NCBI GenBank assembly: GCA_964383765.1
Contig: CAYLHT010000006.1
Coordinates: forward strand, 1-58,764
Source of the DNA: an uncultured Gammaproteobacteria bacterium
GTDB lineage: Bacteria; Patescibacteriota; Patescibacteriia; SBBC01; CAIJZX01
Length of the DNA: 58,764 bases
Reading direction: 5' to 3'
Shown here: in pieces, positions 34,914-51,743 of the stretch
Position numbering within the stretch: position 1 is the first letter of the stretch
Layout: every line of letters begins with the position of its first letter
The notes under the pieces: model-generated
Told to the model about the DNA's origin: nothing
The model's database searches: none
Seen by the model: the letters and a program-made list of their open reading frames with translations, nothing else
Made by a program: the position numbers and the translations under genes

Positions 34914-34954
34914 TATTATTATACGAACCAAGTTCGCATAATAACGAGATAGGC
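34914..34954 (+). other. attI-like site / first junction (G|ATAGGC at 34948/34949)
   Basis: GATAGGC (34948-34954) is the exact complement of GCCTATC, which opens attC-like site 1. It is preceded by the hairpin TATTATACGAAC-caa-GTTCGCATAATA (34917-34943). Confidence 0.6.
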
Positions 34955-35066
34955 GAAATAGTGCCCTTATTGACAGGAATTTAGTTTCTCGATAAGATTC
35001 TGTGTTCTTTCACAACAAATACTTTTAGGAAGCTTGCTCACGTCGCTTGGAAAGGAGGGTGCCACA

Positions 35067-35294: not shown

Positions 35295-35368
35295 ACGCTC
35301 CTTGTTTCCTTTGCGGGAAGGCCTCGCTTTCCCGCTTCCTAAAAGTATTTGTTGCCGCTAGCACAGTA

Positions 35369-35424
35369 TGCACTACCTCGCCTATCAGCGCGTATACGCC
35401 AAATAGGTTCGGCGTATGACGCGC
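35369..35424 (+). other. attC-like site 1 (short simple-hairpin class)
   Basis: GCCTATC-A-GCGCGTATACGCC-aaataggttc-GGCGTATGACGCGC-AAAC-GTTGTAT. One extrahelical G in the 3' arm. Confidence 0.8.
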
Positions 35425-35504
35425 AAACGTTGTATGCCATAGCGAACATGAAGAGATAAGTGCCTCGATCTCGGGGCGCGTGCCCCAAGTCCGAGGCACA
35501 CATG

Positions 35505-36088
35505 TTCGCCACCGCATACAACAGCGGATATGAGACGAAGGAAATCGGGTTTGGTTTTTAGTAAGTGAAAAAATAGCAGGCTTGGTAGCCTGTTATTTCG
35601 CTTCAGTGAAGATAGTTTTTCAGTCGTTAATCTTCTTCGGAATACACATCACTAATTTCTCGCCGAAGATTATCTAATTCATCATACTTTGCCTGTGATT
35701 CTACAGTAACAACGGGGGTGCTTGCGCCAGGCTTGGGCATGATCTTGCTCATTTCTTCATCGAGTTTTTCCACAATTTGTGGCATACGCATATTATCAGT
35801 AACTTCAATAAACTTTGCCGCACGGTCCCGAAAAGCTTTTTTTGATTCTTCCGTCATTGGTCCCCAAGTCCGACCCTCAAAATCTTCCGGCATATATAGT
35901 GACATTATTAGTTAATATATGGGAAAAATAACATGTGCCCACAAATAAAACAAGTGTTCATTGTAGCTTATTGACAATGTAGCAACCAAACCCGATTTCC
36001 TTCGTGCAAATTGCTACCTCGCTCCGGCGGTGGTAAAATTGTACCGCCGGATCGAAACAGCAACTTCTCATATCCGCAAACGTTAGGA
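35505..36088 (+). other. attC-like site 2 (branched class E, carries an ORF in helix-2 loop)
   Basis: ATACAAC-AGCGGATATGAGA...TCTCATATCCGC-AAAC-GTTAGGA. The inner helix CGAAGGAAATCGGGTTTGG / CCAAACCCGATTTCCTTCG encloses 35627..35905. A third hairpin lies around GGCGGTGGTAAAATTGTACCGCC. Confidence 0.7.
35627..35905 (-). CDS. hypothetical acidic protein (92 aa) located inside attC-like site 2
   Basis: AT-rich ORF. A minus-strand terminator hairpin (AATAACAGGC..GCCTGCTATTTTTT) lies at 35558-35587. Confidence 0.5.
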   Translation of the reverse strand: MSLYMPEDFEGRTWGPMTEESKKAFRDRAAKFIEVTDNMRMPQIVEKLDEEMSKIMPKPGASTPVVTVESQAKYDELDNLRREISDVYSEED

Positions 36089-36191
36089 GAAATAACGCCT
36101 CGCTTGTCTATTGACAGACAAGCACATATATGCCAGGGTTCCCTGGCTCATTAAGCTAACCAAAAAAGTGCACTCCTTCAGGAGGTGCGGC

Positions 36192-36584
36192 ATGACAGCG
36201 AAAGATCCGGAGAAAACTTGGGGGATCGCCCTAAGAGCCGCTAAGAACTATCTCGAGGGCGAGATCCAGAAGCATGAGTGTGGCGATCTTCTGGTAAAAC
36301 TGGAAGATCCCAAGGTTCGTCTCCTCGTGGGCCGCAACGTCAAGTTCCTGCGAACCGTGCAAGGTTTAACAGGATCAGAGCTTGAAGTGGTTGCGGGGTT
36401 GTCCAAGAACCTGGTCGGGAAATTCGAGTCAGGGGTCAAGGTCAACCCACGGTATGTGCTCATGATGGCAGCCACGTTCAAGGTTCTGCCGCACCTCCTG
36501 TTCCGGGAAGACCTGATTGAGCACCTGCGTGGCGTGGTCGCTCAAGAAATCAAAAGGTTCGGGGAGGAAAATCCTCGGTCATAG
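36192..36584 (+). CDS. cassette 3: XRE-family helix-turn-helix protein
   Basis: Trimmed to the ATG after AGGAGG. LRTVQGLTGSELEVVAGLSKNLVGKFESGVKVNPRYVLMMAATF is an HTH_XRE-like motif. Confidence 0.6.
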   Translation: MTAKDPEKTWGIALRAAKNYLEGEIQKHECGDLLVKLEDPKVRLLVGRNVKFLRTVQGLTGSELEVVAGLSKNLVGKFESGVKVNPRYVLMMAATFKVLPHLLFREDLIEHLRGVVAQEIKRFGEENPRS

Positions 36585-36655
36585 CACGTTGGAGGAAGGG
36601 GGCTCGCTCTCTTCCTCCACCCCTTTTTGTTATATTAGAAGCGAGGCGTTACATC

Positions 36656-36794
36656 TCCTAACAGCGCGTAACCGACGCGGTTTCTGGCGTCCGGCGAAGC
36701 CTGCCGCTTGCGAAACCGCTACATTTGCTGGTGTTTAGCCGCTCCGCGGCGTATGATAACACCAGCAAAAGTCGGTTACGCGCGGACGATAGCT
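36656..36794 (+). other. attC-like site 3 (139-bp three-helix class A)
   Basis: TCCTAAC-AGCGCGTAACCGAC...GTCGGTTACGCGC-GGAC-GATAGCT. Inner hairpins are GCGGTTTC..GAAACCGC and TGCTGGTGTT..AACACCAGCA. Confidence 0.85.
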
Positions 36795-37057
36795 GAAATT
36801 CCCTTTTTATTTTTCCGGTTTATCTACCGGAAATACAAAAAACTTTTTTAATTTCTTCTGTTATACTTTTTTTACTTTCCTGCCTGAATTAACATTATTG
36901 CTAGCTCAGGTAGGAGCACCAGCAAGATTCTGCTGATGCTTAAGGTGCTGTGGTCTCGCCCAAGGATTATGGTTTGCCTTGGATCCCCACTCTAGGGCAG
37001 GCGTCGCGGGCGCGACTTAAAGGCCTGACCTTTGGCTCGGTCCAGACTTGTCGCCGA

Positions 37058-37660
37058 TTATCCCTTGAGGAGATAATCGAGCATGAGATGCCAGGACTTC
37101 ACCCAGTCAAAATGTTCCTCACGGAACACTTCGGGATCGGGCTTGTCCTTGCAAATCTCGTACAAGTCGTTGTGACCGAATGGCTTGACCGGGTCACCGC
37201 CGCGCTCATAGGCATTGATCCAGCCCCTGTTGTTCGTCAGGAGCACCCGGCACTCGCCGACCATGAAAGGCGTCGGTTCAGCCTCACTCGCGTTGAAAGC
37301 GTCGAGGCAGGCAGAGGCGGGATGAGCGTGATGGTTCGAGTCGGTCAGCAGGCCTATGCACTTGGCGCCGTTTTTGATTGCGGCGTAAAGTACGAGGAAG
37401 ATGCCAACAGGCATCTCCTGGCCAGCATACGACATCCCCCGGTTGCCAAGGAGCGCAGCGCTGGCTGGCATGAGCAGATCACAGAGCACCACGTCGTACT
37501 GCTGACGGACGCTCTGGATGCTCTCCAGGTGCTCCCCGATCACGAACATGGCCTGCATCGCTTCGTCATACGACGAAACGGCGGTCACATCATGGTCGGC
37601 GAGCTGCGCTTTGGCAGCCCCCAAGTGTTTGGGATTGTCGTCGATCACGAGGATCTTCAT
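37058..37660 (-). CDS. cassette 4: CheY-like receiver-domain protein with unknown C-terminal extension
   Basis: MKILVIDDNPKHL...YDVVLCDLLMP has receiver-like acidic residues. GGGAGGTGA SD, TTGACA hexamer at 37744-37749 (minus), GC-rich. Confidence 0.55.
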   Translation of the reverse strand: MKILVIDDNPKHLGAAKAQLADHDVTAVSSYDEAMQAMFVIGEHLESIQSVRQQYDVVLCDLLMPASAALLGNRGMSYAGQEMPVGIFLVLYAAIKNGAKCIGLLTDSNHHAHPASACLDAFNASEAEPTPFMVGECRVLLTNNRGWINAYERGGDPVKPFGHNDLYEICKDKPDPEVFREEHFDWVKSWHLMLDYLLKG

Positions 37661-37829
37661 GCGGTCACCTCCCGATTGGAGTGGGTTTTGGTCAAAGGTC
37701 TAGCTAAAACGAGACCGGCCAGCATAGCATGGCCAATTCTTTTTGTCAATAGTTAGGCCAACTATAGAAATTAAAAAAGTTTTTTTGTATACGTTCCGTC
37801 AAAACGGAACAAAATAAAAAGGGAACATC

Positions 37830-37954
37830 AGCTATCAGCGCGTAAGCGGCTCCGGCTTACTCCGTTCCTCCGTAAGCCTGCGCCTAAGTTGCGCGAGTGT
37901 CGCCTTCGGCATATTATACACTCGCGCAACTTCGCTTACGCGCGGACGTTGTGC
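37830..37954 (+). other. attC-like site 4 (125-bp three-helix class B)
   Basis: AGCTATC-AGCGCGTAAGCG...CGCTTACGCGC-GGAC-GTTGTGC. Inner hairpins are GGCTTAC-tccgttcctcc-GTAAGCC and TTGCGCGAGTGT..ACACTCGCGCAA. Confidence 0.85.
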
Positions 37955-38045
37955 GCCATCGTGTTTTTTTGTAAAACAAATGAGACCCTTATTTATACTC
38001 CTTGGGTCTCAGTAGGAGTGTGGGCGCCTAGCCCTTCTATGAACC

Positions 38046-38393
38046 TTACGATTTCAGATATGCGGGCTTGTCCTCGACGAACAGTCGCCCCTTGCGCAGG
38101 TCCGTAGCGTAGACGCCCTCGACCATACGAAGGTGCGGCCACTTGCTGTCGGTGACATACGCGTTGAAGTGCCAGACATCAGCCGCACCGTGCAGAACGT
38201 CGTCGTTTTCTGCGCCAGCCGTGGTCGACCCTCGCGCCAGTTGATCGATGAACATGTGGATCGCGCCCAAGCCACCGAGATGCATGATGACTGGGAGGCG
38301 ATGGCCGTGCTGGTTGGTTTCTCCAGCACCCAACGAAGCGAGCAGATTATACTTGCTCGGTCCGTCGACGACGTTCAACGGTTGCTTTGACAT
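38046..38393 (-). CDS. cassette 5: hypothetical protein (115 aa), GC-rich
   Basis: Trimmed to MSKQPLNV..., preceded by GAAGGAGA. TTGACA hexamer at 38513-38518 (minus). Confidence 0.5.
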   Translation of the reverse strand: MSKQPLNVVDGPSKYNLLASLGAGETNQHGHRLPVIMHLGGLGAIHMFIDQLARGSTTAGAENDDVLHGAADVWHFNAYVTDSKWPHLRMVEGVYATDLRKGRLFVEDKPAYLKS

Positions 38394-38554
38394 AACGAAT
38401 CTCCTTCTGTAAGGAGCCTGGCGCACTTGTACGGCGGCGCCCACCCTTCTCCGTTTCCGGAGGGCTCGATCATCCGATCGAACAAAGTAGGTTAGCATGA
38501 AATGCTGCAATTTGTCAAGCCCGAATGTTTCTTAAAACGAAAAAACACGACAGC

Positions 38555-38693
38555 GCACAACAGCGCGTAACCGCCTCGGTTTCTGGCGTCCGGCATAGCC
38601 GTCCGCTTCCGAAACCGCTACATTTGCTGGTGTTTAGCCGCTCCGCGGCGTATGATAACACCAGCAACAGTCGGTTACGCGCAAACGTTGTCC
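38555..38693 (+). other. attC-like site 5 (class A)
   Basis: GCACAAC-AGCGCGTAACCG...CGGTTACGCGC-AAAC-GTTGTCC. Near-identical core to sites 3, 7 and 15. Confidence 0.85.
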
Positions 38694-38779
38694 GAAAATT
38701 TGCCTCCCTCGTTGTAAGATAAGCGCGGTTTCCATAAAATAAAGATGGTTGTTACTCTTCCTAAGGTATAGCAGACAAT

Positions 38780-39373
38780 ATGTCCCTATTTAACAAACGT
38801 TTAGATTCGTACGATAGTCAGGTACTCCAAACTCTTGAGAACCAAGTGAACGTATTATTCTCAGTACTTGGAGAATCGCCAAATGAGATGCATAAATTGG
38901 CCAAGAAGTTTCTTGATCAAAGTATTAGGTTATCAGAAAAGAATGGATATCGACATAAAACCAATCTTGGTGATGAAAGAATAAAGGATGTGACTTGGCT
39001 AAACAAACGAATAGCTGAAGGGTTGACCGCGGAAGACTGTAAAGATTTCTGGAATCGTGCACACGAAGTGATCTTGGGTGAATTTATCATTAATGATGTT
39101 TGGAGAAGGGGTCGAGCAAATGCATACAAGCTAACTGGGATGTCCTGGGAAGATGCTGTTAAAAGGGTTCAAAAAGATCACATCATTTATGGCGAACCAG
39201 ATCAAATTGAAGGAGGCTTCATTGGCGACAGTCGGTATATTTATCCTGAATTTGCGAAAAGATTTGAACACTGGAGAAGTACTGTCACCACCGAGCAAGA
39301 AGTAGAGCTATCTCAAAAGTATGAGACATATAATGCAATGGTTAGGGATCTGATCATTAAGAACAAAATCTGA
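38780..39373 (+). CDS. cassette 6, gene 1: hypothetical protein (197 aa), AT-rich
   Basis: Clean ORF with no recognisable motifs. Confidence 0.5.
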   Translation: MSLFNKRLDSYDSQVLQTLENQVNVLFSVLGESPNEMHKLAKKFLDQSIRLSEKNGYRHKTNLGDERIKDVTWLNKRIAEGLTAEDCKDFWNRAHEVILGEFIINDVWRRGRANAYKLTGMSWEDAVKRVQKDHIIYGEPDQIEGGFIGDSRYIYPEFAKRFEHWRSTVTTEQEVELSQKYETYNAMVRDLIIKNKI

Positions 39374-39381
39374 AGACGCAA

Positions 39382-39789
39382 ATGCCACAAACGAAATATG
39401 ATCAATCAATAATAAAAGAAGCGGTCCGCCACATTCAGAACGAATGGGATAATTTCAAGATATGTTATCAACAGTTGCACAGCCCAAACAATGCTATTTA
39501 CTTTGAATGTTTCTTATTGCACGCTCGGAATTTATATGATTTTTTCTTTACACCCAAGAAAATAAATGATGATGTTACTATAACCGACTTTGTTCCTTCT
39601 CCTTTAAAAGGTAATTCATACGTATTCCCAAAAGAGGCGATAAATAAACAGCTAAGCCATATCACATATTCAAGAGTTATTAATCCAATAAATTTATTCC
39701 CGGAACAGGATCAAATCTATTCCTACATCCACAACACACTTATCGATTACAATAATATTGCAGATGAGAGATACCGAATAACGGAATGA
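39382..39789 (+). CDS. cassette 6, gene 2: hypothetical protein (135 aa), AT-rich
   Basis: ORF 8 nt downstream of gene 1, probably co-transcribed. Confidence 0.5.
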   Translation: MPQTKYDQSIIKEAVRHIQNEWDNFKICYQQLHSPNNAIYFECFLLHARNLYDFFFTPKKINDDVTITDFVPSPLKGNSYVFPKEAINKQLSHITYSRVINPINLFPEQDQIYSYIHNTLIDYNNIADERYRITE

Positions 39790-39827
39790 AACCGCGCTTA
39801 TCTTTATGGGTCGGTCGGCAAATCTAC

Positions 39828-39885
39828 GGACAACAGCGAGTCATACGAAATAGCAAGTACTTCGTATGACTCGCAAACGTTGTAC
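39828..39885 (+). other. attC-like site 6 (short simple-hairpin class)
   Basis: GGACAAC-A-GCGAGTCATACGAA-atagcaagtac-TTCGTATGACTCGC-AAAC-GTTGTAC. Confidence 0.85.
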
Positions 39886-39959
39886 GAAATGGAGCGAGGT
39901 TTATGTAAATGAAGAGACCGCCCACAACGCGTTAGCGTGGGGCGGCCTTTGTCGCTGAT

Positions 39960-40262
39960 CTACAGCAACTTGAACGTACCTACAGGGCGATCGGCGTTTT
40001 CGTCCGTGGACTCGACGACCCATACGTTCGGTACCACACCCGGAACGTACTTGAGACGTCGGATCGTGACCCCTTGGAACCGGGGCGAAGACACATACAG
40101 CGCGATGCCTTCCTTGTCGCCGTACCCGATTGAAGTCACTGTTCCCGCGATCATGTGAGAGCTACCGAACAGGAACGGCCGCCCCACGATCTGCGTCGGA
40201 TTGTCGGGCAAACCACAGTCCGTAAGTGCTTGGCCGAACTGCGCTTCGTTCAACTGGAACAT
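39960..40262 (-). CDS. cassette 7: hypothetical protein (100 aa), GC-rich
   Basis: Trimmed to MFQLNEAQ..., preceded by AAGGAGGA. TTGACA-17-TTAAAT boxes at about 40332-40360 (minus). Confidence 0.5.
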   Translation of the reverse strand: MFQLNEAQFGQALTDCGLPDNPTQIVGRPFLFGSSHMIAGTVTSIGYGDKEGIALYVSSPRFQGVTIRRLKYVPGVVPNVWVVESTDENADRPVGTFKLL

Positions 40263-40380
40263 CGCAATCCTCCTTGTCGTTGCTACGTACACAGAGAGTG
40301 GCTGGCCAAACCTGGTGCGAACGAACTGGGCATTTAAGCACAGTTTCTCTGTACTGTCAAGGCCAACCTCGCTCCAAATC

Positions 40381-40519
40381 GTACAACAGCGCGTAACCGA
40401 CGCGGTTTCTGCCGCCCGGCGAAGCCGTTCGCATTCGAAACCGCTAAGTTTGCTGGCGTTAAGCCGCTCCGCGGCGTATGATAACACCAGCAAAAGTCGG
40501 TTACGCGCGGACGATAGTC
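40381..40519 (+). other. attC-like site 7 (class A)
   Basis: GTACAAC-AGCGCGTAACCGAC...GTCGGTTACGCGC-GGAC-GATAGTC. Confidence 0.85.
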
Positions 40520-40807
40520 GAAATATTTATTTTCTTTTTTCGGGCTAACGCCCGATTGTTTACAAAAATTTTCCAATTTCTTTTTCTCTTGAATAGAGGG
40601 GAAGTGGGTGTTTTCTCCGCTTCGCTGCGAAAACGCTTTGTTTTTGAGGGGAATCTAAAATAGCAAAACGAAACTGGGGAAAGCATGTTAATTCGCTGAA
40701 ATACGTCATTTCTCATGAAAATAAAGCTCTTCATCATATACCGGCTTGACAAGTAATATACATACGTTATACCCTTACTCAGGGTATATAATTATAAAAG
40801 GTGGTAT

Positions 40808-41029
40808 ATGGCAGCGGAATTAAGCAAACGCGACCGTTTCAAAAAACTGGCTGTTTATCGTACAAACGAAGTTTTGAAGCGACTCAAGGTCCTAGGAAAT
40901 TGTTCAAATAGAAGTGCGTACGAATACACTGAGGAAGAAGTAAATAAGATTTTTCAAGAAATTGACCGCCGGACTAAGGAAGTAAAGTCAAAGTTTTATT
41001 TTCCTAAAAATCGAAACTTTCAGCTGTAA
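40808..41029 (+). CDS. cassette 8, gene 1: small basic protein (73 aa)
   Basis: First ORF of a tightly coupled three-gene operon (TAATG overlap with the next gene). Promoter-like TTGACA-16-TATACC at 40746-40773. Confidence 0.5.
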   Translation: MAAELSKRDRFKKLAVYRTNEVLKRLKVLGNCSNRSAYEYTEEEVNKIFQEIDRRTKEVKSKFYFPKNRNFQL

Positions 41030-41925
41030 TGAAACATAACTTACCAAAACTTGCGTATAAAACTCCCTACGGCAAGATGTTCCAGGGCCTTGCTGAGCAG
41101 GTTCTTGATTCATCCAAGTTGAAACGGTATGAAGGCAAAGTTCAATTGATTTTCACTTCCCCGCCGTTTCCTCTAAACCGAAAGAAAAGGTACGGCAATA
41201 TTAAAGGTGATCCATACATTAGTTGGCTCACAAGCTTTGCGGAACTTTTTAAAAAATATTTAAAGAAAAGCGGTTCAATTGTAATTGAAATGGGAAATTC
41301 ATGGGAGCCGGGAGAGCCTATTATGTCCACCCTTGCTCTCCGTTCTTTGATCGCCTTTCACGACGTTGGAAACTATAATTTGTGCCAACAATTTGTCGTG
41401 TATAATCCGGCGCGTTTACCAAGTCCAGCGCAATGGGTCACCATTGAAAGAATTAGGGTAAAAGATGCATTTACCCACTTTTGGTGGATGTCGCCTTCTG
41501 TTAACCCAAAAGCAAGCAACAAACGAGTTTTGTCAGAATACAGTGCTTCTATGAAGCGTCTTTTGGCTAGTAAAAAATATAATGCCGGTAAAAGACCTTC
41601 GGAACATAACATTGGTGCAACGTCTTTCTTAAAAAACAACAAAGGCGCGATTAGTTCAAATGTCATTACGGCATCAAACACGAATTCCAGTGATAATTAC
41701 CAAAAGTATTGTCGAGAAAAGGGCATTGACCCTCACCCTGCAAGGATGCAAATGAAGGTCGCCGAATTTTTTATTAAGTTCCTCACTAATAAAAATGATT
41801 TAGTGCTTGATCCTTTTGCGGGGAGTAATACAACTGGAGCAGCGGCCGAGTATCTAAAACGCAAATGGATTTCTATTGAACCGTTGAAGTCGTATATTCA
41901 AGGTTCTAAAGGAAGATTCTTATGA
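41029..41925 (+). CDS. cassette 8, gene 2: DNA methyltransferase, beta-class (N4-cytosine or N6-adenine)
   Basis: Motif IV FTSPPFP comes near the N-terminus and motif I LDPFAGSNTTGAAA near the C-terminus (order IV then I). SPPF is typical of N4C/N6A enzymes. Confidence 0.75.
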   Translation: MKHNLPKLAYKTPYGKMFQGLAEQVLDSSKLKRYEGKVQLIFTSPPFPLNRKKRYGNIKGDPYISWLTSFAELFKKYLKKSGSIVIEMGNSWEPGEPIMSTLALRSLIAFHDVGNYNLCQQFVVYNPARLPSPAQWVTIERIRVKDAFTHFWWMSPSVNPKASNKRVLSEYSASMKRLLASKKYNAGKRPSEHNIGATSFLKNNKGAISSNVITASNTNSSDNYQKYCREKGIDPHPARMQMKVAEFFIKFLTNKNDLVLDPFAGSNTTGAAAEYLKRKWISIEPLKSYIQGSKGRFL

Positions 41926-44195
41926 AACTTGATGAGTTATTCAAACGATTTTCGATTGGAGAAGATATTGATGTTCTAAGTTCTGCCTTAGAAAAGTTTG
42001 TTTCAGAAAACAGAGACGCGGATTGGCATCCTATCGGGGATAAAATCAATAATAAAGGCCCGATTGAAGTCTCAGCTGACCCAGGGCGAGCATTAGTTGA
42101 AAGAGTTACTAATGCTGCTGACGCAGTTTTAGAGCTTGAGCATCATAAACATAACGGACAACCCGAGTGTCGAAGTCCACGTGAAGCGGCAACAGCTTGG
42201 CTGAATGTTCCCAATGAGGGCTTAAGTAAATTATCTACCGCCGAGCGTCGATCTTTGGCTCAAAAAGTTAAAGTAACTATCCAAAAGGGACGTACACGCC
42301 AAAACAGGATTTTTTCAGTGCGAGATTTAGGTCTCGGCATTCTTCCAGAGGACATGGGAAAGACAATCCTTTCACTTAATGAAAGCAATAAACTAGAAAA
42401 GCACTACCTGGCCGGTACTTACGGGCAAGGAGGTTCAGCAACTTTCAGTGTTAGCCAACTCTCATTTATTGCCAGTAGGAAGGCCGGTCAGAATAAAGTG
42501 GGATTCACAGTGGTGAAGTATCAAGAACTGGATCCTGAGCGGTACAAAACGGGTAATTATGTTTATCTAAGGATTAATGATCAAGTTCCTGTATTAGAAA
42601 CTAGTGATCAGGCCTTCCCTGCTGGAACACTAGTTAGGCATTTTGGTTATGACCTTAGTAAATATAACTCTTCGCTGGGCTCAGCAAGTGTATATGGCTT
42701 ATTAAATCAAGTTCTTTTTGACCCCGTGCTTCCAATTTGGCTCGACGATGACGTACAGGGATATCGAAGAACTATTAAAGGTTCCCGGAATGCGCTAAAT
42801 GGAGCTGTTGATGAAGAAGGCAAGGGCCCGTCACTTGTTCACAATATGCCTATGTTTTTTGTCGAACTGCCGGAGTATGGGCGCATAGGAATTGAGTATT
42901 GGGTTCTCGAAAGACCAACTAGTGCAGGAAAGAATCCTGCTGAAGCGTTTGTTAATTCGTCAAAACCCATTGTTCTTTCCTTAAACGGACAGAATCACGC
43001 TGAGTTGCCCAAGCTTCTCATTACCAAAGAGGCTGGAGTTCCGTACCTTGGTAACAGAGTTATTGTGCATATAGACTGCAACAGCTTGACTGGTTATGGC
43101 AAACGTAAACTTTTTTCCTCAAATCGTGAGGATGCTCGTCAGGGCCATGCACTTGAGTTAATCCGCAAAGAGGTTGTTAAAGCTCTCAATTCGGACGATG
43201 AGCTTATTAAGTTGAATAATGAAGCAAAACAATCGGTGGAAAGACAGCGAGACGAAAGCACCGTAAAGGAGATGAAAGCAGAAGTCGCTAGATTATTGAG
43301 GCTACAGGGACTCGAAATTGCAGAAGATGTTGGTTCTTCGGGGAAAAAAGGTAAAACTTCTGGAAAACGCCCTGTCCATCCAGGCCCTGGGCCATCAGTC
43401 CTTCCCCCTATAGAAATTCATGAACCACCAACTTATATTAATATTCTTTGGGATCCCGAAAAAACAATTTCATTCTATTCTGGTCAGCGACGTTATTTGC
43501 GGATTATTACTGACGCGAGCGAATCGTATCACAATGTCACAAACCCCAACCTATCGAAAGTAAATGTAATTATTTCTGGTGGAAATGATATACAGATGAA
43601 AGGAAGCACTCCTCTAAAAGGAGGAAGAATGCGTTTAATTCTCCAAGGTTCCTCTGATAAAGTTGGCACAAAACTAAAAATACGAGTCGAGCTTCAAAGA
43701 TCGGGCATGCCAGCATTATTTGATGAAAGAGAAATGGAGATGGTAAAAGAACCTGAGAAACCTAAATCTGAGTCCAGACCGACTTTGCCACCTTTTGAGG
43801 TCATTCCTGTTGGCCAAACTGACACAGACACGTGGTCAATGTTACAGTGGCCCGAAAACGTAGCCGGAGTTGCGTGTTCGGCTCTGGAAGATCAGGGCAC
43901 GCATACTGTTTATTACAATACTGATTTTCCTAAGTATGCTGAGCAGAAGGCGCAGCTTGAATCTAGAGATGTATCAATGTCTCAGTCTTTCACGAAGCGC
44001 TACGAGATTTGGCTTGCAGTCTATTCTTTATTGATGAAACAAGATGAAGAAAACGGCGTGAATAAAGACATAGAAATTGACCCAGACGTTTTGTCGAATA
44101 TTGAACGTCAAGAAAGAATTAGGACAGCAGTAATGTCAGTCATGTTCGCAAAGCGAGAGGTTCAATTTGAAACCAACACTGAAGCCGAAGAATAA
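41922..44195 (+). CDS. cassette 8, gene 3: large GHKL-type ATPase-like protein (757 aa)
   Basis: Bergerat-fold motifs ERVTNAADAV (N box), RDLGLGILPEDM (G1) and GTYGQGGSATF (G2). The long C-terminal region is uncharacterised. ATGA overlap with the methyltransferase gene. Confidence 0.55.
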   Translation: MKLDELFKRFSIGEDIDVLSSALEKFVSENRDADWHPIGDKINNKGPIEVSADPGRALVERVTNAADAVLELEHHKHNGQPECRSPREAATAWLNVPNEGLSKLSTAERRSLAQKVKVTIQKGRTRQNRIFSVRDLGLGILPEDMGKTILSLNESNKLEKHYLAGTYGQGGSATFSVSQLSFIASRKAGQNKVGFTVVKYQELDPERYKTGNYVYLRINDQVPVLETSDQAFPAGTLVRHFGYDLSKYNSSLGSASVYGLLNQVLFDPVLPIWLDDDVQGYRRTIKGSRNALNGAVDEEGKGPSLVHNMPMFFVELPEYGRIGIEYWVLERPTSAGKNPAEAFVNSSKPIVLSLNGQNHAELPKLLITKEAGVPYLGNRVIVHIDCNSLTGYGKRKLFSSNREDARQGHALELIRKEVVKALNSDDELIKLNNEAKQSVERQRDESTVKEMKAEVARLLRLQGLEIAEDVGSSGKKGKTSGKRPVHPGPGPSVLPPIEIHEPPTYINILWDPEKTISFYSGQRRYLRIITDASESYHNVTNPNLSKVNVIISGGNDIQMKGSTPLKGGRMRLILQGSSDKVGTKLKIRVELQRSGMPALFDEREMEMVKEPEKPKSESRPTLPPFEVIPVGQTDTDTWSMLQWPENVAGVACSALEDQGTHTVYYNTDFPKYAEQKAQLESRDVSMSQSFTKRYEIWLAVYSLLMKQDEENGVNKDIEIDPDVLSNIERQERIRTAVMSVMFAKREVQFETNTEAEE

Positions 44196-44327
44196 ATAGT
44201 TGTTTGCTAGTCGCCGGGCATTCACCCCTTTAATTCCCCTCTGCCCGGCGACCGATTGAGAAAAAGAAATTGGAAAACTTTTGTAAACAAGTCCCGCTGC
44301 CGCGGGACAAAATAATATAAATACATC

Positions 44328-44453
44328 GACTATCAGCGCGTTTGCGGCTACGGCTCGCTCCGTTCCTCCGCGAGCCTTCGCCTATATTGCGCGGGTGTCG
44401 CCTTCGGCATATGATACACCCGCGCAACAATCGCAAACGCGCGGACGTTAGGC
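44328..44453 (+). other. attC-like site 8 (class B)
   Basis: GACTATC-AGCGCGTTTGCG...CGCAAACGCGC-GGAC-GTTAGGC. Inner hairpins are GGCTCGC-tccgttcctcc-GCGAGCC and TTGCGCGGGTGT..ACACCCGCGCAA. Confidence 0.85.
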
Positions 44454-44503
44454 GACATTTTACTCAAAAATAATTATCTGTATATTGTGGGACGAAAAGT
44501 TTC

Positions 44504-44989
44504 ATGATCAAAGCATTTGTCAGCGACTTTTCCAGAGTCCTGTTATCACCGAAAGATGACAGCTACACCGAAGGACTAAATGCGCTGCATAAAAAACTGT
44601 CATCCGGTGGAGATTATGACTTTTGGTCATACTTTCGACTAAATCAAGATTTGCTTACTTTTTACAAAAAACTTAGCGCGGATATTCCTATTTATATGTT
44701 TACCACCGAGTATATTCAGGAACATCCAGCGCTTCAACCTGAACTAGCTGGAGTTTTCAAAAAAGTTTTTAGTGGGGCGGGTTTGCACTTGGAAAAAACT
44801 GATCCGCAATCATACTACTTCATCGCCAGAGAGCTTGGACTTAACACAAATGAAGTCTTGTACTTAGATGATAAACAAGCAAATCTTGATGCTGCTAAAA
44901 AAGCTGGTATGACTGTTATCGCTTATGAAGCAAACGAACAAGCACAACAGGATATCACTAAAACATTGAAAAACTTTTCGTCCCAATAA
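44504..44989 (+). CDS. cassette 9: HAD-superfamily hydrolase-like protein
   Basis: FVSDFSRVLL (motif I-like) and LYLDDKQANLDAAKKAGM (motif III/IV-like). Confidence 0.55.
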   Translation: MIKAFVSDFSRVLLSPKDDSYTEGLNALHKKLSSGGDYDFWSYFRLNQDLLTFYKKLSADIPIYMFTTEYIQEHPALQPELAGVFKKVFSGAGLHLEKTDPQSYYFIARELGLNTNEVLYLDDKQANLDAAKKAGMTVIAYEANEQAQQDITKTLKNFSSQ

Positions 44990-45014
44990 GTTAAATTATT
45001 TTTGAGAAAACGCC

Positions 45015-45646
45015 GCCTAACACGGGCTAGCCGGAGAGCGAACGAAATACTACTTTAATCTATGAGTTTCTACATTATTATTCGAGGTCCGCTCGGCTGC
45101 GGAAAATCTACGATTTCAGAAAAGCTATCTCAGCAATTCAATGCTGAACATATTGCAGTTGATCGCGTTCTTGACGAACACAATCTTACCGAAGACAAAG
45201 AGGACGGTTACATTTCACAAACAAGTTTCAAGCGAGTGAATGAATTAATCGCTCCGAAAGCACAATCATTATTAGAAAATGGAAAAACCGTTATCTTTGA
45301 CGGGAACTTTTACTGGAAATCACAGCTTGATGACTTAATTCAACGCCTGGATTTCCGCCATTACGTTTTCACACTGAAAGCACCACTTGAACTCTGCATC
45401 GAACGCGATCAAGCGCGAGACAAAACTCATGGGAAAGACGCAGCCGAGGCCGTATACAATAAATCAACTTCTTTTGAATATGGCACGTTGATTGATACAA
45501 CTGGAATTATTGACGAAACGGTACAGAAAATTCTTGAACATTTGCCAATAACAAAGTAGTATTTCGTTCGCTCTCCAAAATTGCGTAAGTGTACGCTTCG
45601 CGATAGTATACACCTACGCAACTTCGGCTAGCCCGAAACGTTGTGC
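45015..45646 (+). other. attC-like site 9 (class B-related, carries an ORF in helix-2 loop)
   Basis: GCCTAAC-ACGGGCTAGCCG...CGGCTAGCCCG-AAAC-GTTGTGC. The 20-bp helix GAGAGCGAACGAAATACTAC / GTAGTATTTCGTTCGCTCTC encloses 45062..45559. The third hairpin TTGCGTAAGTGTA..TACACCTACGCAA resembles class B. Confidence 0.7.
45062..45559 (+). CDS. P-loop kinase-like ATPase (AAA_33-like) located inside attC-like site 9
   Basis: Walker A IIIRGPLGCGKSTISEKL. Small nucleotide/metabolite kinase-like size (165 aa). Confidence 0.6.
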   Translation: MSFYIIIRGPLGCGKSTISEKLSQQFNAEHIAVDRVLDEHNLTEDKEDGYISQTSFKRVNELIAPKAQSLLENGKTVIFDGNFYWKSQLDDLIQRLDFRHYVFTLKAPLELCIERDQARDKTHGKDAAEAVYNKSTSFEYGTLIDTTGIIDETVQKILEHLPITK

Positions 45647-45762
45647 GCCATAAAATCTCGGCTTCGAATATTTAAAGAAGGTTTCCTGAATCAGATCATT
45701 ATGGTCACATCGAAAATCATGGCTTATACTTAGAACAGTCTTTTCAATAAACCTACAAATTT

Positions 45763-46392
45763 ATGCTCAAAAAAGCTTTCCTGCTTGCGGTAATAGCCTT
45801 CAGCATTGCCGTCACCGCTATTCCTGCTTCAGCCGCAACGAAAACAAAAATCTACACAAACCGGTCACTGGGATTTTCGTTGAAGTACAATGCGAAATTC
45901 CAATGGTCGACTGGTGGGTGCGACAATGCTCATAATAATATTTTTTTTCAACTCAATCCGTCCGATAAACTCAAATTGGAGAAAACTCAGCGTACCTATG
46001 ATATAGGTGTGCAATTATTGAATTTTAACGATGACGGGTGTTCTTTTGCTGTAACAATAGGACCGAAACTAAGAAAAACCTTACGGACAAGGGGTTGGGC
46101 TTCATTCATTTCTCAATATATAAAAGAAGTTGTCGACCCGAATCCATTCGAATCTGTTGCGGTTCAGGCGTACGGCTTAAATGGATATACCGCAACCATT
46201 ATTACAACCCATGAAAAGGGAGTTCAATATGTTGGTGGAACTGTCGAACACCATATTCTTGTCACTTCTGATAAAGTACATGTTTATGACATTAGCGATC
46301 AATTATATTCACCAAACTACAAAAAAATATTTTCCCCCAATCCCTACGCATACGACTTTCGTGCACTCGCACAAAGTTTCCGTATTCTCTAA
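45763..46392 (+). CDS. cassette 10: secreted hypothetical protein
   Basis: Signal peptide MLKKAFLLAVIAFSIAVTAIPASA. No recognisable domain. Confidence 0.5.
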   Translation: MLKKAFLLAVIAFSIAVTAIPASAATKTKIYTNRSLGFSLKYNAKFQWSTGGCDNAHNNIFFQLNPSDKLKLEKTQRTYDIGVQLLNFNDDGCSFAVTIGPKLRKTLRTRGWASFISQYIKEVVDPNPFESVAVQAYGLNGYTATIITTHEKGVQYVGGTVEHHILVTSDKVHVYDISDQLYSPNYKKIFSPNPYAYDFRALAQSFRIL

Positions 46393-46439
46393 GCTTTCTT
46401 GAAACAGTCACCTGAAGAACAACGCCGAGATTTTACGGC

Positions 46440-46551
46440 GCACAACACGGCGTATACGACATCCCTTCCTCTCTTCGGGGGTAACTCGCACAGCTCGATA
46501 TTCTACCCCCTGCGTTCAGTCGGGACGGTCGTATACGCCGAAACGTTGTAC
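46440..46551 (+). other. attC-like site 10 (112-bp class C)
   Basis: GCACAAC-ACGGCGTATACGAC...GTCGTATACGCCG-AAAC-GTTGTAC. Inner hairpin GGGGTAA..TACCCC. Homologous to site 13. Confidence 0.8.
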
Positions 46552-46631
46552 GCCATGGCGAACATGAAAGTATAAGTGCCTCGACCTCGGGGCGCGTGCC
46601 CCAAGTCCGAGGCACACATGTTCGCCACAGC

Positions 46632-47612
46632 ATACAACAGCGGATATGAGACGGAGGAAATCGGGTTTGGTTTTTTTATAGCAAGAAACCCCCGGAAGGC
46701 ACAGTTGTCCTTGCGGGGGCTGCGATCACGATGATCGCGAAGGTTCATTCAATGGGTAGAGAGTGTTCAGGCCAATGCGACTCGATGGGTCTCGCGGGAC
46801 AACCCATGCAGTCCGGCATACGTAGCCAGGATCTGGCTGGCTGTCATCACCTTACACGGATTCTCAGCATTCACGTCCATTTCGACGTCGTTGATCATGC
46901 CAGATTCGTAGATCCGCACATGAGGCTCGCCGATCTTGTCGTACGCACGGAAGACCGTGAACACCAGGTAATGCGGAAACCACATGGTGGCGCTTCCCTC
47001 GCCGCCGTACAGCCGGATGGTCGCGGTCACTCGCCGAAGCTCGTGCCGAACGTCCTGCGCTGGGGCATCGGGGAACGACCGCTCGAATGGGCCGATGAGA
47101 GCGTCGATCTCGACGATTCGGAACATGTCCGAATAGTACTTCAGCTCATTCTCGGCGCGGTCCTGACGCGAGCCGAAGCCTTTTCGGGACACCGGCGGGG
47201 CCGTTACGTTGGAGCGGTAGAGCTGGATTCCAGGACCGTACAGCTTGGCCAGCTCGGCTCGCAACAGCTCCTCTGCGAGTGACACTGAAAAGGGTCGGTC
47301 GGAACGATGCAGTTTCTTGAACATGGTATTCCTCCCATCACGGGAGCGTATAGGGATATTCCTACACGGCTACCATCTCGGCAGCGAACTAGCCAAGAGT
47401 ATTAACCTCTCTGCTAAATCGCTACCGAGGTACGGATGGAAGAGCTGAAATGAACAAACAGGTCACACTACACTATATACTGGCATTTGTCAATGCCAGA
47501 CACAAAAAACCAATTCCCATTTCCTCCGTCCAAATTGCTGCTTCGTTCCGGCGGTAGTATAATTGTACCGCCTCCACTTCGCAGCAACTTCTCATATCCG
47601 CGGACGTTGTAT
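46632..47612 (+). other. attC-like site 11 (class E, carries an ORF in helix-2 loop)
   Basis: ATACAAC-AGCGGATATGAGA...TCTCATATCCGC-GGAC-GTTGTAT. The inner helix CGGAGGAAATCGGGTTTGGTTTTTT / AAAAAACCAATTCCCATTTCCTCCG encloses 46767..47324. Homologous to site 2. Confidence 0.7.
46767..47324 (-). CDS. hypothetical protein (185 aa), GC-rich, located inside attC-like site 11
   Basis: GGGAGGAA SD 7 nt before the ATG. TTGACA hexamer at 47488-47493 (minus). Preferred over the antisense ORF 46731..47282. Confidence 0.5.
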   Translation of the reverse strand: MFKKLHRSDRPFSVSLAEELLRAELAKLYGPGIQLYRSNVTAPPVSRKGFGSRQDRAENELKYYSDMFRIVEIDALIGPFERSFPDAPAQDVRHELRRVTATIRLYGGEGSATMWFPHYLVFTVFRAYDKIGEPHVRIYESGMINDVEMDVNAENPCKVMTASQILATYAGLHGLSRETHRVALA

Positions 47613-47688
47613 GAAATATACTTTTCCTTTCCGCCTATCGGCTACTGCTTTTCTGAATGAGCAAATTTGATTAGTTACAAAAAGCAAC

Positions 47689-48873
47689 GTGCGAATTCTA
47701 ATTACAGCTGGAGGAACGATAGTAAAAATTGATGATGTTAGACACATCGGGAATTTTAGTACTGGTTCATTTCCAGCAAAAATCGCCGATGCTGCTTTAA
47801 TAAAAGGACATAGTGTTATTTACCTACATGCAAAAAATGCGAAGATTCCGGCTATAAAAAAGAAACTTAAGCTATTTGAGTACGAAACCTACGATGATTA
47901 CGCTCGCCAATTAAAAATCATTCTGAAAAAGAATGATATTGATGTCGCATTTTTAGCAGCTGCAGTATCTGATTATGGGGTCAAACAGTCTAAAGGAAAA
48001 ATCTCCTCATCAAAACCATCACTGGTAATCCGACTTTTTCGTCTGCCTAAGGTAATAAAAGGAGTTAAGAGGTGGTCAAGAAAACCGCTCTTTCAAGTAG
48101 GCTTTAAATTATTATCCGGTGTAAACCAAAAAGAGCTTTTTGAGGTAGCTTATAAATCCAGTTTAGAAAACCATTCGGATCTAACTATAGCTAACGATTT
48201 ATCAAACATACATAAAGGCAAGAGAGGGGTTATTTTAGTTACCCCAGAAAAAGGATTGATTAAACTGCAAGAACCAAAACTAGCCGAAAAAATTATTTCT
48301 TTCGTAGAAAAAAGATCACAAGTACAGCATTTTAGTACAGTTTTATCTCTAAAAAAGAATATCAATAAGAAATTTCGTCGAGAAATTATACTTTTTAAAA
48401 GGCTATGTCACCAGTTAAGTAAACAAGGACATATGCCTGATTTTTATCAGGGTGCCGAATCGGGACACGGTAGTTTGGCTCTAAGAACTAGCAAACATGG
48501 CTTCTTAATTACAGCGCGTGGTAGTAACAAAAAGAGCCTTCGTCCTCATGATGTTGTGTTCGTAAAAAAAGTAGATTGGAAGAAACGAGAAATTTTCGTT
48601 GAATCTGCTACAAATGAAAAGGCTTCTTTTAACGCAATTCTAGTAGCAAATATTTTCAAAAAACTTCCCTCGGTTAAAGCAGTGGTACACACACATAAAT
48701 TCTTTCGGGGTGTTCCGAGTACCGAATTCCCCTTTATGCCCGGCACTCTCCAGTATGCCGTAATACCCGCGCACCTATTTAGGGATAAAACCAGAGTTAT
48801 TAATCTCAAGAATCATGGCTTAATAGCTGTAGGAACTGATTTACAAGAAACTGTAAACCATGTACTACGGTAA
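47689..48873 (+). CDS. cassette 12, gene 1: fusion of CoaB-like (DFP/phosphopantothenate-cysteine ligase fold) and class II aldolase/adducin-like domains
   Basis: N-terminal ILITAGGTIVKIDDVRHIGNFSTGSF and AAAVSDYGV...GKISS are CoaB-like. C-terminal GFLITARGSNK, VVHTHKFF and LKNHGLIAVG are class II aldolase-like. GTG start. Confidence 0.6.
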   Translation: MRILITAGGTIVKIDDVRHIGNFSTGSFPAKIADAALIKGHSVIYLHAKNAKIPAIKKKLKLFEYETYDDYARQLKIILKKNDIDVAFLAAAVSDYGVKQSKGKISSSKPSLVIRLFRLPKVIKGVKRWSRKPLFQVGFKLLSGVNQKELFEVAYKSSLENHSDLTIANDLSNIHKGKRGVILVTPEKGLIKLQEPKLAEKIISFVEKRSQVQHFSTVLSLKKNINKKFRREIILFKRLCHQLSKQGHMPDFYQGAESGHGSLALRTSKHGFLITARGSNKKSLRPHDVVFVKKVDWKKREIFVESATNEKASFNAILVANIFKKLPSVKAVVHTHKFFRGVPSTEFPFMPGTLQYAVIPAHLFRDKTRVINLKNHGLIAVGTDLQETVNHVLR

Positions 48874-49576
48874 TTCGTACAAAAAGTTCCCAGGGCTTTA
48901 CGATTTGTTATATCAAAGGTTTCTAAAAACTGTTCCAGATTTTGTATCTCTGGTTAAGAAGAATACTCCAAAAAGAGGCCTCATTTTAGACTTAGCTGCT
49001 GGAACTGGCGAAGTGACAATCCCCTTGCTACGTCACGGATTTACCGTGGTGAGCCTAGACGCCAGCATAGGGATGCTCAAACAATTACAAAAAAAAGCAA
49101 AAATGGCTGGAATAAAGAAGTATCGCACGAAAGTGCTTGATATGAAAAAATTGAACTACCAGGGTAAATTTGATGTAGTCTGTATACGACAGGCAATCAA
49201 TTATTTTATGGGAACGCGGTCACTAACATCAGGGCTAAAGAGAATTAACGCATCGCTCAAGCGGGATGGTAAGTTTATTTTTAATGCTCCAAATTATCAA
49301 GGTCAGAAAAACTACAAGACCACCTATCATTATTACAATAAAGCATCACAAAGCGCTGTCGTTGTTGAAACAAACACTATCGAAAGAAAAACTTTAAGGC
49401 ATACCCAGTATTCTATAGTTTGGCGGAATAACAATATGCCAACTTTCGTAAACGACGAAAATTCTTTTTATATATTTACAAAAAAGGAATTTGAGAGTTC
49501 TTTAAAAAAGAGTGGTTTTTCAAAGATTCGATTTAGTGGATCCGCTAAAACACTATATGGTGTAGCAACAAAATGA
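48860..49576 (+). CDS. cassette 12, gene 2: class I SAM-dependent methyltransferase
   Basis: LILDLAAGTGEVTIPL is motif I. Overlaps both neighbours. Confidence 0.7.
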   Translation: MYYGNSYKKFPGLYDLLYQRFLKTVPDFVSLVKKNTPKRGLILDLAAGTGEVTIPLLRHGFTVVSLDASIGMLKQLQKKAKMAGIKKYRTKVLDMKKLNYQGKFDVVCIRQAINYFMGTRSLTSGLKRINASLKRDGKFIFNAPNYQGQKNYKTTYHYYNKASQSAVVVETNTIERKTLRHTQYSIVWRNNNMPTFVNDENSFYIFTKKEFESSLKKSGFSKIRFSGSAKTLYGVATK

Positions 49577-51742: not shown

Positions 51743-51743
51743 A

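Follow-up and report, generated by a model that had tools for sequence, protein, structure and literature searches.

How far do the two ends of a gene cassette pair with each other beyond the 7-nt recombination core, and what kind of recombination system would use such a site? The question is raised by a 58,764-nt contig (CAYLHT010000006.1 of assembly GCA_964383765.1, assigned to the Patescibacteriota in the GTDB), called the window here over its full length, in which 16 gene cassettes stand in a row to the right of a tyrosine recombinase gene. An earlier reading made from the sequence alone (the sequence-only reading) had proposed that complementarity between cassette ends continues 20-100 bp past the core and places the crossover deep inside a long stem. 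On balance, our analysis favors an integron-like array from the Candidate Phyla Radiation (CPR) served by a Xer-type recombinase, whose recombination site would be folded from the bottom strand and carry a full-length R arm marked by a mismatch. The two main components of the locus are the following:

34014..34865, minus strand: tyrosine recombinase gene (283 aa, IntI/XerA-like), transcribed divergently from the array
34948..54413, plus strand: array of 16 cassettes, all in one orientation

The cassettes occupy 34948-54407, and the predicted crossover G positions are 34948, 35429, 36082, 36788, 37948, 38687, 39879, 40513, 44447, 45640, 46545, 47606, 50610, 51132, 52663, 53712 and 54407. Each cassette closes with an imperfect palindrome of the form R''(RYYYAAC)-A-L''(11 nt)...L'(11 nt)-NNAC-G|TTRRRY, that is, an attC site, and in all 16 sites a variable loop is enclosed by paired R''/R' (RYYYAAC / GTTRRRY) and L''/L' boxes. 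The core is GTT in 12 cassettes, GAT in cassettes 1, 4 and 8, and GTA in cassette 15. The attC sites measure 54-139 nt and are far longer in three cassettes that hold an open reading frame (ORF) inside attC; among the 13 sites without such an ORF, 11 pair their L boxes at 10-11 of 11 positions. The L stems are unbroken and have no extrahelical base, and the asymmetries of the site consist of a 1-nt versus a 4-nt spacer and of a mismatch outside the R box, at positions 10-11 as counted from the crossover G. No Rfam family matched the array or cassette 8, either at the gathering threshold or at E<=1.

The arms were measured by anchoring each cassette start at its G and aligning it with the reverse-complemented sequence that runs up to the cassette's own inverse core. 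Complementarity between these cognate ends goes well past 7 nt in 16/16 cassettes; it typically covers 17-27 nt, and 46-100 nt in cassettes 4, 6, 8, 9 and 12. The arms other than those of cassette 8, given below, are as follows (left / right):

34948-34964 / 35370-35386: cassette 1, 17 nt
cassettes 2 and 11: 22 nt, the remainder of the cassette being taken up by a hairpin
36082-36105 / 36639-36662: cassette 3, 24 nt
36788..36856 / 37766..37836, plus strand: cassette 4, 62/75 columns matching, a chassis like that of cassette 8 without the LM and RM elements described below
37948-37972 / 38537-38561: cassette 5, 25 nt
38687..38732 / 39788..39834, plus strand: cassette 6, ~46 nt, 37/48 columns matching
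39879-39901 / 40365-40387: cassette 7, 23 nt
44447..44502 / 44971..45021, plus strand: cassette 9, ~55 nt, 47/57 columns matching
45640-45662 / 46424-46446: cassette 10, 23 nt
47606..47673 / 50499..50566, plus strand: cassette 12, ~68 nt, 60/72 columns matching (inverted repeats I4 and I5)
50610-50626 / 51017-51033: cassette 13, 17 nt
51132-51158 / 52596-52622: cassette 14, 27 nt
52663-52683 / 53570-53589: cassette 15, 21 nt
53712-~53728 / ~54304-54320: cassette 16, ~17 nt with a 4-nt bubble

All the cassettes for which arms of 17-30 bp had been proposed do have arms, but those of cassettes 6, 9 and 12 are longer and the feature is common to all 16 cassettes. The proposed homology between the ~70-bp arms of cassette 4 and those of cassette 8 was recovered as two repeat families, D1 (82% identity) and D5 (77%).

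As a control for chance, pairs were scored beyond the 7-nt core only, and the paralogous shells (cassettes 2/11 and 4/8) were left out of the non-cognate set. Cognate pairs score 6-64, against a mean of 2.9 (standard deviation 1.4, maximum 9) for non-cognate pairs of the same array, and 15/16 cognate pairs outscore every non-cognate pair in the window; cognate pairs also lie above non-cognate ones in other loci. Four canonical class 1 cassettes gave total complementarities of 6/7 (dfrA12), ~9/10 (gcuF), 10/12 (aadA1) and 12/12 (aadA2), which means an extension past the core of 0-5 nt there versus 10-93 nt in the window. The sequence-only reading had allowed canonical cassettes a match of 6-7 bp only, which is slightly too strict in view of these values, whereas the contrast with 17-100 nt stands.

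What the arms consist of becomes visible in a position profile pooled from 48 unique cassettes of the window and related loci. High information content is limited to positions 1-5 and 8-12, with the consensus G T T R K n y G M A A T in the left arm and G T T R K n y G M T G T in the right arm (reverse complement). The fraction of cassettes that pair is 0.79-1.0 at positions 1-9 and falls to 0.12 at position 10 and 0.02 at position 11, where both sides are nevertheless conserved in sequence. Positions 12-22 pair in 0.69-0.85 of cases with essentially zero sequence conservation, and therefore show true covariation. Past position ~22 there is no conservation and pairing drops to ~0.5. The mismatch at positions 10-11 is not symmetric between strands: it reads as T.T next to a G.T wobble on the bottom strand and as A.A and A.C on the top strand, the G.T wobble being found 33 times on the former and 0 times on the latter. 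Folding with DNA parameters agrees with this, as the bottom strand is the more stable one in 13/13 cassettes (by 5.1 kcal/mol on average), and cognate arms contribute ~21 kcal/mol relative to an identical attC placed in its array context. In silico, joined cassette ends give a rod that is long and branched and has G|TT inside it, as had been predicted for the excised circle.

Cassette 8 has the longest arms, and its parts are listed here together with the attC of cassette 7, whose R' box provides the G at 40513 that starts cassette 8:

40381..40519, plus strand: attC of cassette 7, 139 nt, R''-A-L''(11)...L'(11)-GGAC-G|AT, L pairing 11/11
40513..40610, plus strand: left arm of cassette 8, a type-A chassis (defined below) with a hairpin at 40540-40555, 81% identical to loci L021, L018 and L008
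40513..40524, plus strand: 12-nt R arm GATAGTCGAAAT, positions 10-11 (40522-40523) standing opposite the fixed mismatch
40595..40650, plus strand: LM element, AGAGGGGAAGTGGGTG, complementary to the RM loop, then a hairpin GTTTTC...GAAAAC (40610-40634)
40808..44195, plus strand: cargo, consisting of a 73-aa ORF (40808-41029), an N6/N4 DNA methyltransferase (41029-41925) and a 757-aa protein (41922-44195)
44212..44250, plus strand: RM hairpin, stem CGCCGGGC / GCCCGGCG, with a conserved 23-nt loop ATTCACCCCTTTAATTCCCCTCT at 44220-44242
44221..44334, plus strand: right arm of cassette 8, with a hairpin at 44291-44308 and the R'' arm ACATCGACTATC at 44323-44334, 72% identical to L021
44328..44453, plus strand: attC of cassette 8, 126 nt, R'' 44328-44334, spacer GGAC 44443-44446, crossover G 44447, L pairing 11/11

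Both arms lie where the sequence-only reading had placed them (40513-40610 / 44221-44334), each with its own hairpin. Positions 40513-40588 pair with 44258-44334 in 65/80 aligned columns, and this stretch includes a 33-nt stem with 97% match (40556-40588 / 44258-44290); in the fold of the joined ends, pairing reaches ~40610 / 44228 via AGAGGGGAA / TTCCCCTCT. The cargo is probably a restriction-modification system, and its 757-aa protein had no match among the Pfam or NCBIfam families. Between 40740 and 40800, upstream of the 73-aa ORF, we noted a promoter-like TTGACA and a palindrome TATACCCTTACTCAGGGTATA that resembles the controller-protein operator of restriction-modification systems.

Where a unit begins and ends can be read from comparisons between related cassettes. 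Cassettes 2 and 11 share 93% identity between ...AAAC|GTTGTA and the ...AC|GTT that comes next, while their neighbors on both sides and their cargo are unrelated. On six independent contigs, the left arm of the cassette 8 type starts precisely at GTTAGCTGAAAT, and the six sequences upstream of it are unrelated; conversely, the cassettes that come directly after ...ACGTT differ between units of the same attC type. Loci L021 and L130 have cargo, right arm and attC in common, and their homology ends at G|TT. These comparative breakpoints fall at GTT within a few nucleotides, which argues for the proposed crossover at G|TT inside the stem. The outcome that would have pointed to a transposon-like unit, namely a crossover located where the arms end, was not found. 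The unit boundary thus appears to be the canonical cassette boundary at G|TT and not the inner ends of the arms.

The recombinase itself comes closest to integron integrases. Its best match in the PDB is VchIntIA (2a3v), in two pieces that skip ~43 aa, and it is colinear with archaeal XerA structures (4a8e, 5hxy). In the alignment, 12+19+11 residues of the IntI-specific domain are found in IntI1 only, and the recombinase lacks them while it keeps the catalytic residues. The additional domain around patch III (I2 helix) by which integron integrases are recognized is thus absent, amounting to ~42-43 aa. Scores lie below the cut-offs for integron integrases (TIGR02249, 218.9 versus 265; NF011946, 152.9 versus 435) as well as for Xer proteins (NF040815 (XerA), 210.2 versus 220; TIGR02224, 170.8 versus 335; TIGR02225, 166.2 versus 330). 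It is a simple protein without accessory domains, 60-76% identical across CPR classes, and its exact sequence was found in no record of the public assemblies. CPR Xer-like recombinases have been placed in a subgroup "Cand" presumed to be Xer, with no mention of arrays (PMC8138268).

Next to this gene lies the attachment site:

34917..34959, plus strand: attI, with TTCGCATA at 34933-34940, AACGA at 34943-34947, the predicted crossover G at 34948 and the arm ATAGGCGAAAT at 34949-34959; an inverted copy TATTATACGAAC lies at 34917-34928

The recombinase gene adjoins attI and diverges from it, and the cassettes follow in one orientation, which is the integron layout and is found in other loci as well. 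The design of attI is kept across CPR classes, in at least 16 loci (L003, L004, L007-L010, L012, L014, L016, L018, L020-L022, L024, L026 and L049) and the window, with TTCGYATA at -15..-8, AA at -5/-4 and GA at -2/-1. The consensus is TTCGYATA-N2-AANGA-G|TTRKNYGAAAT, with a second TTCGYATA ~45 nt upstream, and the TTCGYATA at -15..-8 and the 11-nt arm after the G are loosely inverted copies of each other. Since the conserved attI bears the same 12-nt arm, the 12 nt at the cassette starts correspond to the cassette-side arm of the recombinase-adjacent site. Judging from its sequence, this 12-nt arm fits an 11-bp binding arm of the Xer/Cre type. The second TTCGYATA recalls the direct repeats of attI1, and the position of attI beside the recombinase gene recalls single-recombinase Xer systems, in which the site lies next to the gene.

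The very long arms of cassette 8 have homologs in other genomes, in loci L021, L018, L008, L011, L010 and L037. Type A, to which they belong, has the form GTTAGCTGAAATATTCCTTTTCTTTT-hairpin-TTGTTTTAAAAAATTTTCAAATTTCTTTTTC, and both its arms occur at >=90% identity in L021, L091, L100, L106, L132, L152 and L155, around cargo of 1.4-9.2 kb that is almost unshared: 63 ORFs yielded 6 protein clusters common between contigs. Cassette 8 of the window is a diverged member, in which both arms have changed in concert with respect to L021. A tblastn search with its cargo against the loci that share its arms returned one weak methyltransferase match only, and therefore the similarity of the arms is not carried along by similarity of the cargo. 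Chassis cargo consists mostly of restriction-modification genes and ATPases, together with a tRNA synthetase and a dehydrogenase. Other chassis families, with arms of 60-97 nt, were found in L090/L164, L168, L188 and L106/L160/L184.

Two elements mark the inner ends of this chassis. Scanning metagenomes with the motif of the right arm yielded 120 stretches, among them 64 unique versions of the RM hairpin; its stem shows compensatory changes in 12/13 pairs, its 23-nt loop is conserved, and it sits 0-6 nt past the last stop codon of the cargo. At the inner end of the left arm lies LM (AGAGGGGAATAAGGTG plus a small hairpin), which approximates the RM loop in reverse complement and is followed by a promoter-like TTATTT-N16/17-TACAAT, the first ATG being ~95 nt after the start of LM. 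It occupies the equivalent place in cassettes of L008, L011, L018, L020, L021 (twice), L024, L035 and L037, as well as in metagenome loci. An empty chassis is seen in L181: here RM directly follows the left arm and 5' part of LM, the junction being at ATGGAGTTTT|GGGC, and the right arm comes next without any cargo:

L181 2392-2602, plus strand: empty chassis of the cassette 8 type, the first unit after an attI-like sequence

No match to the RM loop motif (0) was found in the viral contigs scanned, so there is no sign of the chassis travelling on known phages. The notion of cargo seated in the loop of a conserved shell thus applies to cassettes 8 and 4 and, with a different placement, to cassettes 2 and 11, but most of the other arms are cassette-specific.

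A 10-nt direct repeat, AAGGWGTTTT, flanks the cargo, with one copy in LM and one at RM's 5' foot. Two tandem RM-type hairpins were seen at the 3' end of a cassette in L100 (298-386, minus strand) and also in L132, L152, L118/L122, L116, L184, L196 and L200; the second one again follows GTGTTTT, as if hairpin-bearing modules had been stacked. The metagenome motif scan also caught local hairpins of similar sequence (CACCCCTTTAATTCCCCTCC...GGAGGGG), which were set aside as an unrelated family. Unrelated-looking local hairpins that use almost identical short motifs (CCACCCCTTTAATTCCCCTCC-loop-GGAGGGGA...GGGGTGG) occur in non-array contexts on other metagenome contigs:

L084-L199 (e.g. L087, L093, L117, L156, L179, L180 and L183): unrelated-looking local hairpin family

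A different kind of enclosure is found in cassettes 2, 9 and 11, where a whole ORF lies in the variable loop of attC between L'' and L'. These loops are closed by an extra stem of 22-27 bp that is 89-100% complementary:

35516-36088: attC of cassette 2; extra stem 35535-35556 / 35984-36005
45015-45646: attC of cassette 9; extra stem 45033-45056 / 45553-45576
46632-47612: attC of cassette 11; extra stem 46650-46676 / 47504-47530

The shells of cassettes 2 and 11 are 85-93% identical. The minus-strand ORFs that they enclose (35627-35905 and 46767-47324) are unrelated, and each has promoter- and terminator-like signals of its own. The inner ORF of cassette 9 codes for an AAA_33 kinase-like protein.

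The same architecture is present beyond the window. Arrays organized in this way are found upstream of the recombinase gene in L016, L035, L024, L021, L007, L020 and other loci; L035, a Peregrinibacteria locus whose recombinase is 49% identical, and L021 have cognate arms of 24-35 nt with the same mismatch at positions 10-11. Cassettes were paired in these genomes by cognate core matches of >=6/7 and by walking from site to site. Tracing cassette by cassette in L007, L010, L014, L020, L021, L024, L035 and L037 gave arms of 20-31 nt in 15/17; since walking fails in several loci and at cassette 1 of the window, the traced counts are lower bounds. Two Flavobacterium loci (L043 and L039) have a recombinase that is 41-43% identical and also without the additional domain. 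Downstream of the gene they show arrays of ~147-nt sites (in L043 at 11357-14562, plus strand), with cognate arms of ~15 nt and a single A/G mismatch at position 11. We also noted minimal ORF-less cassettes of 41-43 nt, made of a 12-nt R' arm, a 17-19-nt loop and a 12-nt R'' arm followed by a normal attC:

L100 ~6582-6542, minus strand: minimal ORF-less cassette
L130 ~3662-3620, minus strand: minimal ORF-less cassette

In the window, the array and its recombinase are flanked by a galT-like gene (33039-34004) and by tyrS (54408-55649, minus strand), and the order glgA, galT-like gene, recombinase recurs in a Patescibacteria metagenome-assembled genome (L023). Because of this gene order, and because the relatives of the recombinase (60-76% identity) come from Patescibacteria/CPR assemblies, the locus is best regarded as a sedentary chromosomal array of a CPR bacterium. 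Two populations of cargo can be distinguished: low-GC cassettes (~38-44% GC) with plus-strand ORFs, and higher-GC cassettes with minus-strand ORFs. The latter have their own promoter-like TTGACA-N17/18 just inside the right arm (cassettes 4, 5 and 16, and the inner cargo of cassettes 2 and 11). The following regions were noted in this respect:

36858-37765, 37973-38536, 39902-40364, 46677-47503 and 53750-54290: regions noted for the two cargo populations

The cumulative GC skew has its minimum at the boundary of recombinase and array (~35000-36000 of the window), in a noisy curve confounded by foreign cargo; a reading of the locus as a replication origin or terminus was rejected as too noisy.

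How these parts might work together can be put as follows. Each cassette is a unit of the canonical type, G|TT...cargo...R''-L''-loop-L'-G, and in an excised single-stranded cassette, or in a displaced bottom strand, its two ends and attC could fold into one long rod. Positions 1-12 (TTRKNYGAAAT past the cleaved G) would then form a full-length recombinase-binding arm of ~11 bp, of the Xer/Cre type, identical to the arm on the cassette side of the double-stranded attI. The mismatch at positions 10-11 may mark the folded bottom strand as the substrate, a role that extrahelical bases and the I2 helix have in the canonical system. Positions 12-22 would serve as a clamp, free in sequence, that keeps the arm double-stranded and extends it to ~22 bp, while the L arm would be made by the attC stem across the 1 x 4-nt bulge. 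Our data show the anatomy with its statistics, conservation and covariation, the boundaries of the units as given by breakpoint comparison, and the absence of the additional domain from the recombinase. By inference, these arms would be bound by the recombinase, which would cut the bottom strand at G|TT and depend on the stem. As to the 70-100-nt arms of cassettes 8 and 4, they are best seen as the halves of a conserved palindromic cassette, originally without ORF, a chassis in which cargo modules sit at a fixed point beside the RM hairpin.

A further step, which we put forward tentatively and regard as doubtful, would see in the CPR a Xer-derived "proto-integron": a recombinase without the additional domain and its attI would stack cassettes that fold as single strands, the R arms would be full-length and mismatch-marked instead of being read via extrahelical bases, and ORF-less chassis would act as landing pads with cargo inserted at a second hairpin site (RM, AAGGWGTTTT). 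In that case one route of cassette genesis would become visible; to our knowledge, this step has never been observed for integrons.

Several observations sit uneasily with the favored reading of a folded bottom-strand site with a mismatch-marked R arm. The binding arm accounts for ~12 bp and the clamp for ~10 more, not for 70-100 nt. Type-A right arms are >=90% identical, yet the attC sites that follow them reach a median identity of only ~0.68. In the window, conversely, attC cores are common to unrelated cassettes (3/5/7/15, and 10/13 at 93%) that differ in their R'' arms. Taken together, similar arms with divergent attC sites and shared cores with different R'' arms indicate that reassortment between attC cores and arm-plus-cargo modules takes place at the R''|L'' boundary, which a strictly canonical model with one crossover does not predict; occasional use of the top strand, with cleavage at R'', could yield such reassortment, but this is speculation. 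Some cassettes in other arrays show little extension, and 6/17 of the traced ones carry an insert of 40-55 nt in the right arm near the position of the mismatch. Finally, a recombinase so conserved across the CPR may be a housekeeping Xer protein for which array recombination is a side activity. The insert (~40-55 nt) contains GGGGCGTTGCAC, and arm complementarity resumes beyond it:

L021 ~5415-5374, minus strand: right-arm insert module, also present in right arms of L024, L035, L160, L007 and L020

Other explanations of the long arms account for parts of these data. The arms could be a by-product of cassette construction, left from a split palindromic ORF-less cassette or serving as homology arms for cargo swaps, with only the 7-12-bp core of importance for recombination. 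The empty type-A chassis in L181 would be expected in this case, as would the existence of ORF-less hairpin cassettes (the outer hairpin of cassettes 2/11 at 35429-35522 and the 41-43-nt cassettes of L100 and L130), the exact exchange of cargo within the loop of cassettes 2/11, the direct repeat on both sides of the cargo, and chassis arms that are conserved in sequence, and not in pairing alone, around unrelated cargo. It leaves two things without explanation, namely the pairing of positions 12-22 in the short cassette-specific arms where sequence is not conserved, and the fixed, strand-asymmetric mismatch. We therefore consider it rather unlikely as an account of the arms in general; it is a partial rival, largely compatible with the favored reading as far as the 70-100-nt arms are concerned. 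The extra length of the stem may aid recombination, for example by holding the cassette ends together, or may be a legacy of construction. A function at the RNA level would have the arms pair in the transcript, like rRNA processing stalks, and insulate, process or stabilize the mRNA, with LM and RM as elements of the 5' and 3' untranslated regions. The placement of RM directly after the last stop codon and of LM ~95 nt before the first ATG is in line with such a role, the RM stem covaries as a structured RNA would, and the hairpin loops of both type-A arms read alike on one strand (TATC) and are not reverse complements. Wobble bias and fold energies, however, favor the bottom strand, which is antisense to most of the cargo, the arms start exactly at the recombination core, and the 5' part of LM lies upstream of the promoter-like sequence. 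Moreover, arms of the same kind surround minus-strand cargo whose own promoter lies between them (cassettes 4, 5, 7 and 16), so that the mRNA of these cassettes cannot hold both arms. On these grounds we judge an RNA function improbable.

Still less probable, in our view, are units resembling transposons or miniature inverted-repeat transposable elements (MITEs), whose terminal inverted repeats would be moved by a transposase and for which the attC-like hairpins would be a mere target. Inverted repeats of 17-100 bp with a conserved 12-nt tip, and the reassortment of arm and attC modules at R''|L'', are what such units might show, but none of the 25 LM/RM units or of the window cassettes codes for a transposase, no target-site duplication was seen, the flanks being parts of attC, and paralogous and orthologous units contain the attC downstream and extend as far as the next G|TT. 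In addition, a tyrosine recombinase with a matching attI heads every array. Chance or low-complexity matches in AT-rich intergenic DNA, which the A/T-richness of the arms might suggest, are excluded by the cognate versus non-cognate scores given above, in the window and likewise in other loci, and this explanation deserves practically no weight.

If the reading of an integron-like CPR array holds, its consequences are of several kinds. The integron principle would reach the CPR, a large and little understood share of bacterial diversity, and run there on a recombinase without the domain taken to define integron integrases, which bears on the evolution of these enzymes from Xer-like ones and offers a natural test case for the recognition of a folded single strand without the I2 helix. 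The long arms would reveal cassette modules in which arm plus cargo is separate from the attC core, and filled and empty chassis together would give a handle on how cassettes are made. CPR arrays carry many restriction-modification and other defense genes. Because integron finders require the IntI domain, the standard ones probably overlook these arrays, reporting nothing or a cluster of attC sites without integrase. A full-text literature search returned no description of integron-like arrays in the CPR, of integron-type integrases without the domain, or of cassette-end stems of this length.

Among known systems, chromosomal integrons such as the Vibrio cholerae superintegron (IntIA, with attC sites of the V. 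cholerae repeat type) are the closest in layout. They share with the window a recombinase divergent from attI and then a cassette array, imperfect palindromes RYYYAAC...GTTRRRY with boundaries at G|TT and an inverse core that matches the cassette's own start, a bottom strand that folds better, attC families specific to the array, and a content of cargo mostly without annotated function, defense genes and ORF-less cassettes. The window recombinase differs from theirs in lacking the additional domain (I2 helix region) and in scoring under the TIGR02249 cut-off. The window sites have a perfect 11-bp L stem that lacks any extrahelical base, an unpaired spacer of 1 x 4 nt and an R stem of ~22 bp with a fixed 2-nt mismatch, versus 7-12 bp in the class 1 cassettes checked; arms of up to 100 nt, chassis families and the three cassettes with an ORF in the attC loop are further differences. 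The sequence-only reading had held that this geometry departs from that of described attC sites, which is correct in degree; canonical cassettes can reach 12 bp, and the departure lies also in the first 12 nt, which resemble a protein-binding arm with a fixed 2-nt mismatch, and in a recombinase that is no canonical integron integrase.

Single-recombinase Xer/dif systems (XerA, XerH/difH, XerS/difSL) have in common with the window a short and simple recombinase and a site directly beside its gene; the window site would likewise have arms of ~11 nt around a short central region. CTX phage, an integrative mobile element exploiting Xer (IMEX), integrates, by exchange of one strand, as a single strand folded into a hairpin whose central region is imperfect. 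Unlike Xer/dif and IMEX, the window array stacks up to 16 cassettes, each with a hairpin site, and takes its arms from the two ends of a cassette. The pdif (Xer-site) modules of Acinetobacter plasmids are likewise bounded by inverted arm sequences of the Xer type and reassort, but pdif sites are 28-bp double-stranded XerC/XerD sites on plasmids, with no hairpin attC, recombinase-headed array or long stems. The terminal inverted repeats of insertion sequences and MITEs also bound a mobile unit and combine a conserved tip with a variable interior; the window units differ from these in having no transposase or target duplication, in including a downstream hairpin site and in ending at G|TT. The array would work like an integron, but its integrase falls outside the integron integrases on two of their defining marks, the additional domain and the family score, and its recombination site has a geometry of its own.

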